Sequence record: OR327751.1
From: Escherichia phage Ecp_YSF
DNA length: 53,268 nt
Strand: one strand, 5' to 3'
A model generated the notes under the pieces. That model had not been told where the DNA came from, searched no databases, and was given only the letters and a program-made list of their open reading frames with translations. Position 1 is the first letter of the stretch. Every line of letters starts with the position of its first letter. The translations under genes were made by a program, and so were the position numbers. This document shows, piece by piece, positions 585 through 53,268 of the stretch.

Positions 585-1235
585 ATGATTACTGCAACAC
601 TCGTTGACCACATGGGCAGCGACCTTACAACTGTTAATGCTGCACGAGTTTCTTACGGTGCAGAATCCCACGAAATGTCGCTTCGTGATGAGAAGCTGAT
701 TGAGTTTCTTGCCAAGCACAAACACATTACGCCGTTCCGTCATGCACAAGTAACTCTTCGTTGCAAAGCTCCAATCTTCATTGCACGTCAGCTTGGCAAA
801 CACCAAACTGGCTTTAGTTGGAATGAGGTAAGCCGTCGTTACAAAGATGGTGAAGCAATTTCAATCGAATGCTTTGTTCCGGAAACCGTGTTTGCACGGC
901 CCCAGAAGTTAATGACCCAGGCTGCACAAGCTGTTGAGCCAGAGGTGGCAAAAGCAATCTCAGAAATTATTGAGTATGCAAACCGTCGGGCTGTCCGAGA
1001 ATATAAATCCTTAGTTGGATTGGGTGTTGCTCCAGAGCAAGCTCGCATGGTGTTGCCACAATCCATGATGACTGAATGGGTTTGGACCGGTTCCCTTTAT
1101 GGCTGGGCATCCATGTATAATCAACGTTCCTCCGAACATGCGCAATATGAAGTTCGCTTGTTTGCGGAAGAAGTGAATAAAATCATGTCAGAACTGTTCC
1201 CAATTTGTTGGAAGGCTCTGACCAACCAGGAATAA
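585..1235 (+). CDS. thyX: Flavin-dependent thymidylate synthase (ThyX)-like
   Basis: Translation has ThyX-like blocks (VNAARVSYG; ITPFRHAQVTL; PIFIARQLGKHQTGFSWNEVSRRY). Canonical RHR triad is replaced by KHQ. Confidence 0.7.
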   Translation: MITATLVDHMGSDLTTVNAARVSYGAESHEMSLRDEKLIEFLAKHKHITPFRHAQVTLRCKAPIFIARQLGKHQTGFSWNEVSRRYKDGEAISIECFVPETVFARPQKLMTQAAQAVEPEVAKAISEIIEYANRRAVREYKSLVGLGVAPEQARMVLPQSMMTEWVWTGSLYGWASMYNQRSSEHAQYEVRLFAEEVNKIMSELFPICWKALTNQE

Positions 1236-33958: not shown

Positions 33959-34469
33959 GTATGAAGGGTTTGTTGAGAATACGAACCTGACTGAAAGCCA
34001 ACAAGTGCTCAGGGACGAGCACAAGATTCTATTCGGATGCGATAAGAATGGAACATGTTGGTATAAAATTCGTGAGTCTTTAAAGGACGGTACAGCCAAA
34101 GTTGTATACGAAAATGATGGGACTATTCGACACATTGACTTTGGTCCTGGCGATACTGTGGCTACACCGCTGGGTGGAAACATAGTTGAGCTGGAGTCAC
34201 TGCCAGAGGGTGTCGAAGAAAACAGACACTTTTGGAAGTTTGATGGTGAGAAGTTTGTCGAGCATAAAGAAAACCGTGTGAAATATAACGAGTTTATGCG
34301 TAAGAAGAAACTTGCACCATTGACGGAAGAAATTGGCATTCTCACCGACATGGTTGAGCTTGGTATGGCCAAGAAGTCTGACAACGAACTGCTTGTTAAA
34401 CTTAAGAAGAAGCGTATCAAACTGTCTCAACTCGACCTAACCGAAACAATCGACTGGAATGAATTCTAA
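33927..34469 (+). CDS. Tail fibre assembly chaperone candidate
   Basis: 180 aa directly after fibre genes, charged C-terminal half; overlaps fibre gene end. Confidence 0.35.
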   Translation: MEHGMTAILCKYEGFVENTNLTESQQVLRDEHKILFGCDKNGTCWYKIRESLKDGTAKVVYENDGTIRHIDFGPGDTVATPLGGNIVELESLPEGVEENRHFWKFDGEKFVEHKENRVKYNEFMRKKKLAPLTEEIGILTDMVELGMAKKSDNELLVKLKKKRIKLSQLDLTETIDWNEF

Positions 34470-34810
34470 TGGATAGACAAACTTTCCAGATGATTTGGGA
34501 AGCAATGCACCAATACGGCGTTTGGCATGGGCTGTTGGCTGGACTGACAGCCTTAATCCGTGGTGCATATGAGAGTGAGGGTTTAAGCAAAGCGTTGCTG
34601 GATGCGACGCTATGCAGCTTAATCGGCCTGTTTGCATTTCAGGTCGCAGGTACATTTGAAACTTTCACAACTAACGTCACTATGCAGTTGGTGTTAGCTA
34701 TTGTGATTGGCGTCATTGGTGCCAACCTCATTATCACAACTGTCAGGGAAAGTTTCTCTGGCGCAATCAAACAACTTAATCCTTTGACGTGGTTCAAGAA
34801 GGCACGATGA
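34469..34810 (+). CDS. Holin candidate
   Basis: 113 aa with about three hydrophobic segments and charged C-terminus; immediately upstream of hydrolase. Confidence 0.5.
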   Translation: MDRQTFQMIWEAMHQYGVWHGLLAGLTALIRGAYESEGLSKALLDATLCSLIGLFAFQVAGTFETFTTNVTMQLVLAIVIGVIGANLIITTVRESFSGAIKQLNPLTWFKKAR

Positions 34811-34827
34811 AATGGTAAGGAACTCGA

Positions 34828-35382
34828 ATGTTATCATTCAAAGTCCTTGCACTTCTGACAGCTTTAGTTCACATCAACGCCCCAGCTTCGGTTGGGGCAG
34901 TGAATTCTGCTATTACAGATTTTGCAAGTCACTCTTATTTAAATGGAAGTCTGAAACTATCTTCTTCACAACGCAAAGAGCTAGAATGCTATACTAAAGT
35001 TATCTGGTATGAAGCTCGCGGAGAAGACAAACATGGAAAGATTCTGGTAGCTAATGTCGTCCGTAATAGAACTAAGTTCGGGAAGCCATTCGCTAACACC
35101 GTTTGTGATGTTGTCTATCAACGCAATCAATTTGCATGGACACGAGAAGCAAAGAAGAAGAATGCTCAATGGAAGCATGTAGCAAAGATTAATTATGCCA
35201 CAGAACAACAACAAGTTCTGGACACCATTAATGTTGCAATCTCTTTTGTACTATTCAATCAACCCTCTGTCACCAAAGCAACCCACTTTTGTACAGCATC
35301 GGAGAAGTGCAACTTCAAGAATGTTAAAGGTTTGGGACGTTATGGTGGCCATAAATTCTATGAGTATCTAGGAAATCTGTAA
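34828..35382 (+). CDS. Endolysin candidate: SleB/CwlJ-like cell-wall hydrolase with N-terminal signal peptide
   Basis: N-terminus [24 protein letters not shown] is signal-like; motif [24 protein letters not shown]. Confidence 0.6.
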
Positions 35383-36482
35383 TGGCTTACACTACCTTTT
35401 CACAAACCAAGAATAACCAACTATTAGAACCAATGTTCTTTGGTCAGAACGTTAACGTTGCTCGATATGACCAACAGAAGTACAGCATCTTCGAGAAGTT
35501 AATCGAGAAGCAGTTATCTTTCTTTTGGCGACCTGAGGAGGTTGATGTTAGCCAGGACCGAATTGACTATGCTGGTCTTCCTGAGTGTGAGAAACACATT
35601 TTCACCAGCAATTTACGATACCAAATCCTGCTTGATTCCATTCAGGGGCGTGGACCAACTACAGTTTTGCTACCAATTGTGAGCATTCCTGAGCTTGAAA
35701 CTTGGATTGAAACTTGGTCATTCTCAGAGACAATTCATTCTCGTTCTTACACGCATATTATTCGTAATATCGTGACAGACCCAAGCGTAATTTTCGATGA
35801 AATTGTGGAGAATGAGCATATTAAAATGCGTGCAATTGGCATCTCCCAATATTATGACGAGCTTCAACACCTAACTTCCATGTGGCATCTGCATGAAGAC
35901 AAAGTTTCTCTTCGTGAGCTTAAGAAGAAGCTGTATTTATGCCTCATGTCTATCAATGCATTGGAAGCAATCCGCTTTTATGTCAGCTTTGCTTGCTCAT
36001 TTGCCTTCGCTGAACGCAAGTTAATGGAAGGAAATGCCAAGATTATTCGCTTAATTGCTCGTGATGAAGCACTCCATTTGACTGGAACTCAACACATGCT
36101 GAACCTTCTTGCAAGCGGTGTTGATGACCCAGAAATGGCCGAAATTGCTAAAGAATGCCGCCAAGAATGCCAAGAAATGTTCGAAAATGTGGCCCAACAA
36201 GAGAAAGATTGGGCTGATTATTTGTTCAAAGATGGCTCAATGATTGGCTTAAATAAGCAAATTCTGTGCGGATATGTGGAATATATCACGAATATTCGTA
36301 TGCAAGCAGTTGGATTGGATGCTCCATTCAAAGGTGCTACTAACCCGATTCCTTGGATTAACGCATGGTTGAATTCGGATGCTGTACAAGTCGCTCCACA
36401 AGAAACGGAGATTAGTTCGTACCTTGTCGGGCAGATTGATTCCGAAGTGGACACCAATGCTCTTGGCGGATTTGAGCTTTAA
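35382..36482 (+). CDS. nrdB: Ribonucleotide reductase class Ia small (beta) subunit
   Basis: Translation is colinear with E. coli NrdB as recalled from memory, not computed ([11 protein letters not shown]...; EEVDVS; [16 protein letters not shown]; [11 protein letters not shown]). Confidence 0.9.
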
Positions 36483-36769
36483 CGATTATATGCGAGAAGA
36501 GATTCGATGCGTTAGCGTCGTTTCTCTTTGAGCTAGAATAAGACAAGTAAATTAAATATTTATTTATTCCCAATATTGCTACAATATTAAGAGTAATATT
36601 AGGAATGCGTAAAGTTAAAACCAAATGGTACATGGTCGGTCAACTGTACCTAGACATAGACTTGTTCACAATCGGTCAGCTGTATCTAGCCGGAATTTGT
36701 TCGAACAGAAGTCCGACTATGTTATAAAAATTTTTATATAATTTTTTTTAATTTAAATATTGTTACGGA

Positions 36770-36847
36770 ATTAATGAGACTCAAATTGTTTCAATATTAA
36801 TGAGACTAGAATTGTAACGATATTGACGAGACTAGAATTGTGGCAAT
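36770..36847 (+). repeat. Three tandem imperfect 26-bp repeats
   Basis: ATTAATGAGACTCAAATTGTTTCAAT / ATTAATGAGACTAGAATTGTAACGAT / ATTGACGAGACTAGAATTGTGGCAAT; core resembles T7 promoter TAATACGACTCACTATAG. Confidence 0.8.
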
Positions 36848-36852
36848 ATTAT
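36823..36852 (+). promoter_or_regulatory. Sigma70-like promoter candidate upstream of RNAP gene
   Basis: TTGACG, 18 nt, TATTAT (TATAAT also present at 36850-36855); AT-rich tract upstream at 36700-36770. Confidence 0.4.
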
Positions 36853-37030
36853 AATTTTTATTTTGGGCCAGCGGGGGAGGGGAAGCCCAACGTCCTATCG
36901 GACTTAAATACGGTCCCTACTCCAACTTTTTCCTACAGCCTATCGGCTTTCAAACAACACCAAGTTAGGCGCTTCGCTTATGGGTCAAGGTCAAAGTCTC
37001 CGTGCTGTTGTAACAATGGCACAGGTTTGT

Positions 37031-37052
37031 GATATTAGTTGGTTGTGAATTG
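37031..37052 (+). promoter_or_regulatory. Conserved phage motif copy a (candidate phage-RNAP promoter)
   Basis: GATATTAGTTGGTTGTGAATTG; matches consensus CTGAAACATTAGTTGGATGTGAA; about 65 nt upstream of RNAP start. Confidence 0.4.
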
Positions 37053-37115
37053 TGTAATGGCTACGCTATTATAATCCGTTTCAGTTAAATCATACACAAT
37101 CTTGGAGACTTACAA

Positions 37116-39056
37116 ATGATTACTATCACCACTCAAACTATCAAATCTGTTGTTCCTGCTATCACTGCTCTGGTATACCGTGCCAAAGAGAAGCAGAACT
37201 ATATGCAGCCTCAGACTTGTGCTATTGCTGCCCTAGCCATATTCAAGATGATGACGTCTTTCACTCGTGATGACGTTGTTCCTGCCATTGCGATGGTTGA
37301 GCTGGCTTCTGCTTCTATTGCTGATGCCAACCGCTACAACAACGATTTGAAAGCAATGCACTATGTTGACCCAGCTATCAACCTCATTGGTTTGGCTAAG
37401 CACTTTGGCTTCATCACCATGAACGAAGACAAGTCATTCCAGCAAACTGACACATGGGTTGAACTGGTTACAACCAAAGACACAGCAGTGCCATTCACTG
37501 AGCGTGTTACATCTGAATCTCGTCGCAAGCCTTTCGTTAAAGGTGGCAAAGTTAAGCCATCCAAAACTCTGAAAGCTGCAATCGAATTCCTGCAAGATAC
37601 TGAGTACCATGTGGAGACTGAGATGGTTCGCATCATCCAGTCCATGCTTGAGCAACGTACTTATGGTGGCTTGCAGATGCCAGAAGCAATCCAAACTGAA
37701 CTCCATGTTTGGAACAATGCTGTAGCAATGATGAATCAGGATAAGCTGTATTCTGACTACTTTGCTGATAACCGTGGTCGTCTGTATCATGTAGCATGTG
37801 CTGGTCCTAACCCACAATCCTCTGACTTTGCTCGTTGCTTGTATTCTCACAATGTTGAGAACATCGTTAAGAAGTTTAACGAAGATGGTTCTACTACCAT
37901 TGCATACAACATGTTCATGGCAGAGCTGGAAGATATTTCCGGTGGTGAATGGTGCAGTGCTAAGCGTTTAACTTATGTTGCTCAGAATCCAGCTGGTTCA
38001 CTTGCTCGCATGATGAACATGCCTAAAGCTGAGCGTCCTTCTAAGCCATTCACTTATGTTCGTCTGGCTCTGGATTGGTTCAAGTTTGAGACTACAGGTG
38101 AATGCGATTCTCGTGTAGGCTTTGGCTTAGATGCTAAATGTTCTGGTACTCAATATCTGGCATTCATTGCTGGTAACATGGAAATGGCTCGTGCAACAGG
38201 TCTGGTTGATTCTGAGACTAAAGCATCTGACCCATACCAGTTGAGTCTTCGTGAACTGTTGAAGCTGCTGGACAAGTCTTCAATGAAACCATCTCCTGAA
38301 ATTATGGATGAATTCTTGAATCCGAAAGCTGGTCGTAAGTTTATCAAAACTCCATACATGGCTATCCAATATGGTGGTGGTAAAGCTGCACTAACTGGTT
38401 CTTCTGACTTTATCTCCTACATGACAGAAGCTCTCCAGATTCCTATGGAGAAAGCTGAGGCATTTGCTGAACTGTGTGTAGAAGCAATCCATAACGCATT
38501 GGGTGCTAAGATTAACATGTTCATTGAGAAAGCTGCTGATGCTGCATACAACCGTTGTGTTGAACTTGGTAAAGAGTACATCACATACCGTCACACTGAT
38601 GGTCAGGTTGTAATGAAGCCTTGCTTCCCATCTCGTGAAATCTGTGAGGCATTCAGCATTCGTGTTGACTCCCAAACTCGTGTTATCTTTGGTCAGATTC
38701 AGGAGAATAAGCCTTGGACCATTCGTGAATCCAATCCAACTAAAGAAGAATTCAAGCGTACTTTCGTTGTTAACTACATTCAAGGTATTGACGCACTGGT
38801 TGCTCGTACTGTTGCAGTTAAAGCTAAAGAAGCTGGTCTTCGTGGCTTTACTTCAATTCACGATTGTTTCCGTTGCTGCTTAGCTGATGCTCCACGTATG
38901 ATGGAAGTTATTCGTGCAGCATATGTTGAAATCTTCGTAACCAACAATCAATTCGAGAATCTGTCTAAGCAACTCGGTGGCATTCAGATGTATCATGAGA
39001 ACATCGTAACCGAAGAGCTTCTGATGAGCGAACACGCTTACTACTTCTGTCAATAA
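37116..39056 (+). CDS. Single-subunit DNA-dependent RNA polymerase (T7-like catalytic core, compact 646 aa)
   Basis: Motif A-like LDAKCSGTQYLAF; motif B-like RKFIKTPYMAIQYGGGKA; motif C-like FTSIHDCFRC; RBS GGAGAC before ATG. Confidence 0.75.
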   Translation: MITITTQTIKSVVPAITALVYRAKEKQNYMQPQTCAIAALAIFKMMTSFTRDDVVPAIAMVELASASIADANRYNNDLKAMHYVDPAINLIGLAKHFGFITMNEDKSFQQTDTWVELVTTKDTAVPFTERVTSESRRKPFVKGGKVKPSKTLKAAIEFLQDTEYHVETEMVRIIQSMLEQRTYGGLQMPEAIQTELHVWNNAVAMMNQDKLYSDYFADNRGRLYHVACAGPNPQSSDFARCLYSHNVENIVKKFNEDGSTTIAYNMFMAELEDISGGEWCSAKRLTYVAQNPAGSLARMMNMPKAERPSKPFTYVRLALDWFKFETTGECDSRVGFGLDAKCSGTQYLAFIAGNMEMARATGLVDSETKASDPYQLSLRELLKLLDKSSMKPSPEIMDEFLNPKAGRKFIKTPYMAIQYGGGKAALTGSSDFISYMTEALQIPMEKAEAFAELCVEAIHNALGAKINMFIEKAADAAYNRCVELGKEYITYRHTDGQVVMKPCFPSREICEAFSIRVDSQTRVIFGQIQENKPWTIRESNPTKEEFKRTFVVNYIQGIDALVARTVAVKAKEAGLRGFTSIHDCFRCCLADAPRMMEVIRAAYVEIFVTNNQFENLSKQLGGIQMYHENIVTEELLMSEHAYYFCQ

Positions 39057-39073
39057 CATTAATTGGGTCAAGG

Positions 39074-39298
39074 ATGACCACAAACTTGGAGACTACAATG
39101 AATACCATGCAAATCAATCAAATCGAAAACTGTTTCAATCCTCATCACACCTGTGACATGAGTGATTTATCTCGTCCTACGGTGGAGGAGACTAAAGACT
39201 TCTTAGAATTGTTATCAGAATATAAGCAAGAGTCGCATGTATTATTGCACGCATTCTTGCATAATTCTGGATTCTTTGATACAGAAATACCGTTCTGA
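39074..39298 (+). CDS. Hypothetical small acidic protein (74 aa)
   Basis: ATG-initiated ORF after RNAP; in-frame ATG at 39098 with GGAG upstream is an alternative. Confidence 0.4.
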   Translation: MTTNLETTMNTMQINQIENCFNPHHTCDMSDLSRPTVEETKDFLELLSEYKQESHVLLHAFLHNSGFFDTEIPF

Positions 39299-39303
39299 TA
39301 CTT

Positions 39304-39328
39304 GGGAGCTTCGGCTCCCTATTTTTGT
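39304..39328 (+). terminator. Rho-independent terminator
   Basis: GGGAGC-ttcg-GCTCCC followed by TATTTTTGTTCT. Confidence 0.75.
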
Positions 39329-39367
39329 TCTAATTAATCTTAGAGCTGGCTTCAATATTGTAGCCAG

Positions 39368-39392
39368 TTGTAACATTAGTTGGATGTGAAGT
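39368..39392 (+). promoter_or_regulatory. Conserved phage motif copy b
   Basis: TGTAACATTAGTTGGATGTGAAGTA. Confidence 0.4.
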
Positions 39393-39599
39393 AACAGAAT
39401 ACGGAGAAGTATTCCGCATGTCATGTTGAAATCATTCTAGAAACATTTCAGCATGTCAACTAAACATACAGCGTTGTAATGATGTGGCAATCATTGAACT
39501 CCCTGTCTTTGGCCGGACAAAGTTCCAGCAACCATGTGTGAAGTAGGAATATCATTCGAAACTGTTCTTCAAATAAACATGACTTATCCCTAAAGAAGC

Positions 39600-40320
39600 T
39601 GGGACAGCTCATGTAGTACCAGCATGTTCAATTGTGACAATATTGCTCCATCTCCTATTATAAAGGCCCACCCACAAGCCGGGAGATAACTTTGGTAATA
39701 TTGGAACTTTTGGACATGCTTCTTTCTTTCAATCAGAATTCGAAAGAAGAGAAGAGTCGGAGCAAAGCCGCGAAACTAATCCCGTAGCCCGCCCCGATTT
39801 TGAGCAACAAATATTGTGACAATTTTGTCGCAGTATGGCATGTAAATATTGCTACAAATTGGCATGTTGGAATGTGGCAGAATTGTTAGAGGACTAATCC
39901 CCTCGAAGATACAATCGTCTACCAATCTGGCATGTTATTTTTGTAACAGTATTTGTGCCAATTTCGCATGTATTAGCTGTATCAGTATTAACCCAATATT
40001 CTTGCAACCCGCATGAATACTGGCTTCCAGCCAAGCGAAGGCTTTATCATCGCATGTAAATATTGTGACAATATTGGGATAAAACCCTTTATTTAATTAG
40101 TTTTATTATGCTGTACATGGTCGGTTTTCCGTACCTGCTTGCTCCAATCTTAATGTGCCAAATACGTTAAGTATGGGAGTAAACCTGTAATTAATGGTGC
40201 ATGTTTAATTGTGACAAAATTCGTCTATTTGGCAGATGAATTAGTTGCAATTAAGCATGTTCATTTATCATTAGTTGCATGTGAATAAGACCAAATCTCT
40301 GTAAATTCTGCCGAAATTGT
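39600..40320. repeat. Cluster of operator-like palindromes (AATATTGTGACAATATT family), each preceded by GCATGT
   Basis: Copies near 39616, 39810, 39836, 39925, 40050 (perfect 17-bp palindrome at about 40063-40079), 40197; related AATATTGCTACAATATT at about 36567. Confidence 0.7.
40265..40290 (+). promoter_or_regulatory. Conserved phage motif copy c
   Basis: TTATCATTAGTTGCATGTGAATAAGA. Confidence 0.4.
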
Positions 40321-51706: not shown

Positions 51707-51847
51707 ATGGACATTGATGCACTAGACAATTTGGACTTCGGTGCTGCCGAAGAAGCAATTGAAGAACTCAAGAAAAAGCAGGACGAAGAAGCAATCGTTC
51801 CTGGTGCTGGCGATAACGACTGCTCAAGTGGTGCGTGCGCCATCTAA
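51707..51847 (+). CDS. Small acidic protein (46 aa)
   Basis: RBS GGAG before ATG 51707. Confidence 0.35.
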   Translation: MDIDALDNLDFGAAEEAIEELKKKQDEEAIVPGAGDNDCSSGACAI

Positions 51848-53127: not shown

Positions 53128-53268
53128 AAGTTCAGGCTTTCGTTTGGGTTACTCCTCATCCCGAAGTTAGCTGGATTCAAAATCCAGACTATGTTCCTAT
53201 ACACATGAAATATGCAAGTCGAGGGTTCTTAATGTTCAAACATGATGCGAGCATTGAGCGGGTTTATA
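53128..53268. repeat. Right copy of direct terminal repeat; identical to 1-141
   Basis: Exact 141-nt identity with window start. Confidence 0.9.

Follow-up and report, generated by a model that had tools for sequence, protein, structure and literature searches.

An orphan class Ia nrdB gene in Escherichia phage Ecp_YSF and its possible pairing with the host NrdA

The window analyzed here is the whole 53,268-nucleotide (nt) stretch of DNA from Escherichia phage Ecp_YSF (OR327751.1), and our subject is its nrdB gene, which lies on the + strand at 35382..36482 and encodes the β subunit (R2) of class Ia ribonucleotide reductase (RNR). The reading frame runs from ATG to TAA and specifies 366 amino acids (aa). 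It was identified by its match to PF00268 (Ribonuc_red_sm; E 3.8e-49, residues 32-322) and, in a phmmer search against the Protein Data Bank (PDB) sequences, to E. coli R2 (E 2e-200, phage residues 1-366 aligned to 1-376); it also matched phrog_86 (E 1.5e-151). We found that 300 of the 366 aligned residues (82%) were identical to E. coli NrdB (PDB 1RIB; 6W4X chain C) and that the two proteins were colinear, the sole indel being the loss of E. coli residues 173-182 from the phage protein. An earlier note, made from the sequence alone, had described the product as colinear with and very similar to enterobacterial NrdB, and the alignment bears this out. The six diiron ligands (D84, E115, H118, E204, E238, and H241), the radical tyrosine Y122, and the radical-transfer or gating residues W48, E52, D237, E350, and Y356 were all identical. 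The phage gene differs from that of E. coli in lacking the 10 residues, in five changes of the C-terminal tail, in its phage-like codon composition, and in its DNA. We infer that it encodes a catalytically competent class Ia β subunit, capable of forming the tyrosyl radical and of serving in ribonucleotide reduction. The protein was 100% identical to those of phages SA91KD and 2KOFFS.

A megablast search of positions 34000-40000 against GenBank phages returned 17 near full-length matches (87-96% identity) from phages of E. coli, Shigella, and Yersinia, among them flopper, ST32, SA91KD, and Bp10. These relatives belong to the genus Carltongylesvirus of the family Chaseviridae, and an enterobacterial host, which the same note had proposed, agrees with them. 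Positions 1-141 and 53128-53268 of the window were identical (141 nt), and both window ends mapped next to each other in flopper. The window is therefore a complete Carltongylesvirus genome of about 53.1 kb, assembled as a closed, circularly permuted sequence. The terminal identity resembles the assembler overlap of a circularized contig and leaves a unique genome length of 53,127 bp. The note's wording that nrdA was missing "anywhere in the genome" is therefore justified, and the searches supported it. When E. coli NrdA, NrdE, and NrdD were compared with all six frames by tblastn (word size 2, E up to 100) and by phmmer --max, nothing better than E 0.3 was obtained. Among the ten longest other open reading frames (ORFs; at least 380 aa), eight had different Pfam identities (primase-helicase, DNA polymerase, terminase, portal, sheath, tape-measure-like, head-protease-like, and RNA polymerase), and two (384 and 399 aa) had no Pfam match. 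For class II NrdJ, the Pfam scan of the longest ORFs was the sole coverage. Neither nrdA nor yfaE was adjacent to nrdB, and no nrdA was annotated in relatives. The phage nrdB is thus an orphan, whose cognate α subunit has no gene in the genome.

A large subunit of the phage's own, present but too divergent, split, or of a novel kind, has been largely refuted and is scarcely tenable. Phage RNR genes are often split or interrupted by introns (PMC3653736), and the best, nonsignificant NrdA match of the six-frame search led to a 46-aa ORF with an NrdA-like C-terminus. Nevertheless, the same searches found nothing else, eight of the ten longest other ORFs have other assignments while two are unassigned, and the 46-aa ORF is a member of a separate family of microproteins, which has its own conserved N-terminus and occurs in several phage families. 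A hidden or split nrdA was rejected for these reasons.

According to the alignment, the equivalent of E. coli Y356-L375, the NrdA-docking peptide, is encoded at 36420..36479 (+). Fifteen of these 20 residues were identical to E. coli, the changes being D368N, D369A, S371G, N372G, and Q374E. We also compared the tail with 113 cellular NrdBs taken from the protein search, and all the positions invariant among them (Y, L, G, Q, I, D, then F and L) were kept in the phage. A C-terminal peptide similar to the docking region of E. coli, as had been noticed from the sequence, is indeed present. For the rest of the interface, the 2.6 Å cryo-electron microscopy structure of E. coli α2β2 provides lists of the β residues that contact α directly or through water (PMC11551348, SI Tables S9-S11), in which the β tail gives 26 direct interactions with α and the non-tail residues 18 (PMC11551348). 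Of the α-contact residues, 43 of 47 were identical in phage NrdB, compared with 256 of 318 residues elsewhere (one-sided Fisher P = 0.045), and the changed ones were N343A, D368N, N131T, and R57Q. Such conservation is what a hybrid enzyme would need, but a close homologue of NrdB of any kind should show it as well.

The 10 residues that the phage protein lacks (GTHTVNGKTV) form a β-hairpin in E. coli NrdB, and the junction of the deletion was placed by alignment at 35898..35903 (+), codons 173-174 of nrdB. Within the genus the hairpin has been trimmed to three lengths, by 10 residues in the ST32 type, by 7 in FXie-2024a, and by 4 in GJ1, giving NrdB lengths of 366, 369, or 372 aa; the cellular NrdBs that we inspected had it at full length, as did the NrdBs of phages in which nrdB has an nrdA partner. 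This pattern, and the co-occurrence of nrdB with a genus-specific microprotein resembling the NrdA tail, would suit a reading in which the phage β subunit together with host NrdA changes the control of the enzyme and not its capacity, either by replacing host β2 after shut-off or by escaping a limitation or defense such as radical quenching, dATP feedback, or depletion of deoxyribonucleoside triphosphates (dNTPs). We regard such a role as unlikely. Residue I297 of β packs against I47 of α in the dATP-inhibited α4β4 ring (PMC11447812), and this residue, the only one of β reported to anchor the ring, is conserved in phage NrdB together with its neighbors 293-301. Moreover, no α contact is listed in the tables of PMC11551348 within E. 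coli β residues 171-183, that is, in the deleted hairpin. Deletion of the hairpin as an escape from dATP-induced α4β4 inhibition was therefore considered unsupported, and the residues of phage NrdB give no sign of altered allosteric control.

An RNA polymerase of at least 90% identity was found in 45 records and an NrdB of at least 90% likewise in 45, so every member of the genus has nrdB, and its reading frame was intact in all 45 genomes. It directly followed the endolysin gene in flopper, SA91KD, GJ1, and FXie-2024a, the records in which the region was inspected. The products annotated as gp75 in phiEcoM-GJ1, ORF79 in ST32, and gp78 in SA91KD represent the same gene at the same position after endolysin (91-100% identical), and the Carltongylesvirus nrdBs differ just by hairpin length and a few substitutions. 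No nrdB was present after holin and endolysin in Loessnervirus Y2, Suwonvirus PM1, Faunusvirus, or Sabourvirus 4HA13, and the whole genome of 4HA13, an E. coli phage, was negative for both NrdB and NrdA. The possibility that nrdB is a trait of the entire family Chaseviridae was rejected on account of these four sister genera and the negative 4HA13 genome; nrdB is a genus-specific accessory gene.

Comparison of the phage copies gave ratios of nonsynonymous to synonymous substitution rates (dN/dS) of 0.010 against flopper, 0.088 against FXie-2024a, and 0.070 against GJ1, with dS between 0.23 and 0.78. Each of the 5426 complete E. coli genomes had an nrdB whose DNA was about 70% identical to that of the phage gene, and synonymous sites were saturated in this comparison (proportion of synonymous differences, pS, 0.82-0.88). 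In addition to the chromosomal nrdB, E. coli plasmids gave 201 matches to the phage gene, with identities of 60-80%. The GC content at third codon positions (GC3) was 0.41, like that of other phage genes, versus 0.62 in E. coli nrdB. Judged by these measures, the phage nrdB is an old gene whose composition has been ameliorated and on which purifying selection is strong. A pseudogene or relic was rejected by the dN/dS values of 0.01-0.09.

As to its origin, phage NrdB shared 75-82% identity with the NrdBs of practically all Enterobacterales and 76% with that of Vibrio, and no specific donor stands out because the similarity is about equal across these groups. In a neighbor-joining tree (Kimura distances, 300 bootstraps, Vibrio outgroup), the Carltongylesvirus NrdBs grouped at 100% bootstrap and formed a clade (78%) with those of Cronobacter phage 009 and the Pantoea jumbo phage Survivor and with metagenomic NrdBs. 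This clade was sister to the cellular Enterobacterales and not nested within them, although long-branch attraction is possible. The NrdBs of phages vB_CsaP_009 (Grimontviridae) and Survivor, the nearest branch, were 75-79% identical to that of Ecp_YSF, and part of their clade shares its "TNA" tail signature. In contrast to Carltongylesvirus, phage 009 carries an nrdA immediately before its nrdB, with a product 76% identical to E. coli NrdA, and the members of the 009/Survivor clade that were inspected keep the full hairpin. The likeliest history would be descent from a phage nrdAB pair, of which nrdA was lost or never captured. Recent capture from E. coli was rejected by the DNA identity, the saturated synonymous sites, the GC3 values, and the tree. 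The term "host-like", which the earlier note had applied to the gene, therefore has to be qualified: the protein is of enterobacterial type, but the gene is an old one of a phage lineage and is not a copy of that of the present host.

Two further explanations can be judged from these data. According to the first, nrdB would be what is left, in decay, of an nrdAB operon that the phage once had, or a functionless passenger. Its nearest relatives do come from phages with adjacent nrdA and nrdB, and it is missing from the sister genera, but a frame that is intact in 45 of 45 genomes, low dN/dS, and a composition fully ameliorated to that of the phage make this disfavored explanation highly improbable. 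According to the second, the protein would be a decoy, or dominant-negative subunit, that sequesters host NrdA and stops host DNA synthesis. The docking tail is conserved, and an inactive vaccinia R2 that still binds R1 is dominant negative (PMC2900304). Yet the tail alone would suffice for such a function, while all metal ligands and the radical tyrosine have been kept with dN/dS below 0.1, and the phage, which has no other RNR, itself needs dNTPs. We consider a decoy very unlikely.

All recognized genes of the window are on the + strand. The endolysin ORF (34828..35382, +; PF07486) precedes nrdB, and the nrdB ATG shares one base with the endolysin TAA stop (TAATG). The sequence AGGAAA (35370-35375), seven bases upstream, resembles a Shine-Dalgarno element and together with the start codon occupies 35370..35384 (+), as read from the sequence. 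The overlap suggests that nrdB may be cotranscribed and translationally coupled with the lysis genes. A terminator-like hairpin (36505-36520) with a T-rich tract was found by consensus scan at 36505..36530 (+), 23 nt past the nrdB stop. Using the GJ1-type phage promoter motif taken from the SA91KD annotation (ACATTAGTTGGATGTGAA, up to 3 mismatches), we located five copies on the + strand, at 37030, 39371, 43502, 48316, and 50251, versus 0 expected by chance, and all of them were in the early/middle region. Since the physical genome ends of relatives fall between nrdB and the RNA polymerase gene, nrdB is the last gene of the rightmost, late transcription unit. The gap of 633 nt between nrdB and the RNA polymerase gene contains, at 36759-36851, three tandem copies of a sequence with a 26-nt period (ATTGT..CAATATTAATGAGACT...), which overlap a good sigma-70-like promoter, TTGACG-18-TATTAT, at 36823-36852. 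The counterpart of this gap in relatives holds the physical genome ends or a terminal repeat.

The most economical reading of the data, and one that we hold to be reasonably probable, is that phage NrdB is functional and pairs with host NrdA as a hybrid RNR. We favor it because the catalytic residues are intact, the α contacts are conserved, and purifying selection is strong. The phage protein would form a β2 dimer, its diferric-tyrosyl radical cofactor would be built with iron, oxygen, and reductants of the host, and the dimer would dock on host NrdA (α2) by the conserved C-terminal tail and the body surface. The resulting host α2/phage β2 hybrid would add radical-generating capacity and could sustain or raise deoxyribonucleotide synthesis during infection. 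It would act alongside the flavin-dependent thymidylate synthase ThyX (585..1235, +; PF02511, E 5e-44), another dNTP-supply gene of the phage, and the dUTPase, whose gene was assigned in the window by synteny with flopper. Cofactor assembly, binding to host NrdA, activity, and benefit to the phage are all predicted here from sequence comparison.

Several observations weigh against a hybrid enzyme. D369A is the single departure from a near-invariant tail position, where 105 of the 113 cellular NrdBs have D, and D368 of E. coli, replaced by N in the phage, contacts Q712 of α. Compatibility of the phage R2 with the host R1 has to be judged from 43 identical contacts out of 47 on one side, and on the other from D368N, D369A, and N343A in the tail and descent within a phage NrdAB clade, in which phage NrdB groups with NrdBs that pair with phage NrdAs and not with host NrdB. 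In addition, nrdB is dispensable for this type of phage, because the sister genus Sabourvirus infects E. coli without it. Finally, the motif scan of the window found the GJ1-type promoter neither before nrdB nor in the structural and lysis region, and the far end of the late structural/lysis block is an odd location for a DNA-precursor gene, which we regard as a weak point.

Hybrid enzymes of this kind have a precedent in eukaryotic viruses. Most Chordopoxviruses encode only R2, and vaccinia F4 binds host R1 through its C-terminus in a complex that is needed for efficient replication (PMC2900304). Like them, Ecp_YSF encodes R2 and no R1, and its small subunit is intact; the poxvirus hybrid with the host large subunit supplies dNTPs (PMC2900304). 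The difference is that the poxviruses and their hosts are eukaryotic and that their hybrid was demonstrated by coimmunoprecipitation and genetics, whereas the pairing proposed for the phage is deduced from sequence. Phage T4 also has an aerobic class Ia RNR encoded by the phage, but its NrdA and NrdB make up a complete two-subunit enzyme, and the identity is about 51% (T4-like RB14 and RB55). The T4 RNR subunits are not known to cross-react with the E. coli subunits. Should the hybrid with host NrdA exist, the R2-only strategy of poxviruses would have its counterpart among the viruses of bacteria, and the radical-generating rather than the catalytic subunit would be the part of RNR worth carrying for a small phage of 53 kb. 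Studies of subunit compatibility in class Ia enzymes would also gain a simple system, a natural β variant that has 66 substitutions and no hairpin.

The 46-aa ORF mentioned above lies at 51707..51847 (+), just upstream of the spanin genes, and encodes an acidic microprotein (MDIDALDNLDFGAAEEAIEELKKKQDEEAIVPGAGDNDCSSGACAI) from its own ATG, with GGAG 5 nt before it. Its end (...DNDCSSGACAI-stop) resembles that of NrdA (...DDGCESGACKI-stop), the likeness being confined to the last ~20 residues. The NrdA tail, which contains C754 and C759, takes up reducing equivalents from thioredoxin or glutaredoxin and passes them on to the active site. At an identity of at least 95.7%, the microprotein was present in exactly those 45 genomes that have nrdB, and it was absent from other Chaseviridae. 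One of the genus members is recorded as "Staphylococcus phage Pel53" (PP952070.1), with Staphylococcus hyicus as host; this phage, which carries 90% identical nrdB, RNA polymerase, and microprotein, is a typical Carltongylesvirus, and the recorded host is probably a mistake. More distant members of the microprotein family, 42-84 aa long and in every case annotated as hypothetical, occurred in Pectobacterium Ounavirinae, Klebsiella and Serratia Siatvirus, and Salmonella phage SPAsTU, where the gene is located between thymidylate synthase and MazG, and further ones in Erwinia phage Caitlin, a Vibrio Zobellviridae phage, and metagenomes. The family is found in at least five unrelated phage groups. 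All members but P0129 (...CDGCKI) end in C-x-G/S-G-A/G-C-K/A-I-stop. When a profile built from five members was searched against all PDB sequences, the top 14 of 15 matches were the C-termini of class Ia RNR α subunits, aligned end to end at 740-761 and including the R1 C-terminal peptide of 1QFN (chain B), with E-values of 0.01-2.7. PHROGs contains only families of unknown function for these microproteins, and Pfam gives no annotation.

The microproteins share with the E. coli NrdA tail (residues ~737-761) the ending D-D-x-C-x-G/S-G-A-C-K/A-I-stop, but they are free-standing and have an acidic N-terminal motif of their own (L-D-x-L/M-D-F-like), and the E-values of the match are marginal (0.01-0.2). 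The likeness to the NrdA tail is specific and bears on the claim that no nrdA exists anywhere in the genome. The 46-aa ORF lacks the ten-stranded barrel domain (PF02867/PF00317; C225, C439, and C462) and is not a catalytic subunit. It was also rejected as the 3' remnant of a lost nrdA, in view of its own ribosome-binding site, its conserved N-terminus unlike NrdA, and its homologues in Ounavirinae, Siatvirus, Seoulvirus, and Zobellviridae phages. A link between the microprotein and nrdB is possible, for which co-occurrence within one genus is weak evidence. In an extended form of the hybrid reading, which we think quite doubtful, the phage would upgrade host NrdA by two genus-specific parts, a streamlined NrdB and a 46-aa mimic of the redox tail that acts in trans, whether by reducing the active site of NrdA again or by capturing thioredoxin or glutaredoxin. 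If this were true, an enzyme that the phage does not itself encode, that of the host, would depend on the phage for its radicals as well as for its reductant. The placement of one family member does not fit an RNR-tail reading: a 42-aa protein at locus L021, 1541-1669 (also in L022 and L023), is encoded between iscS (Aminotran_5) and iscU (NifU_N); the operon, one for Fe-S cluster assembly, further includes hscB, hscA, fdx, and a T4-endoV-like gene.

The orphan nrdB as such is not a new finding. Annotation of the gene goes back to phiEcoM-GJ1 and ST32 (PMC6266442), and Dwivedi et al. (2013; PMC3653736) reported two phages that contain only nrdB, tabulated phiEcoM-GJ1 as nrdB-only in their Table S1, and left the functionality of incomplete RNR gene sets as a question that was then open. 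Our literature search found no paper on host NrdA together with phage NrdB, and the hybrid mechanism suggested here would be of a known kind. Considering that nrdB itself is a long-annotated auxiliary metabolic gene, the family of NrdA-tail-like microproteins is the newer lead and the one most worth following. Two database entries named NrdB looked like fusions, and both were rejected as assembly artefacts: P0004 carries a repeated translated adaptor-like sequence (PVSYTHLDVYKRQ), and P0040 is a chimera of an NrdA C-terminus and NrdB on a 2.9 kb contig.

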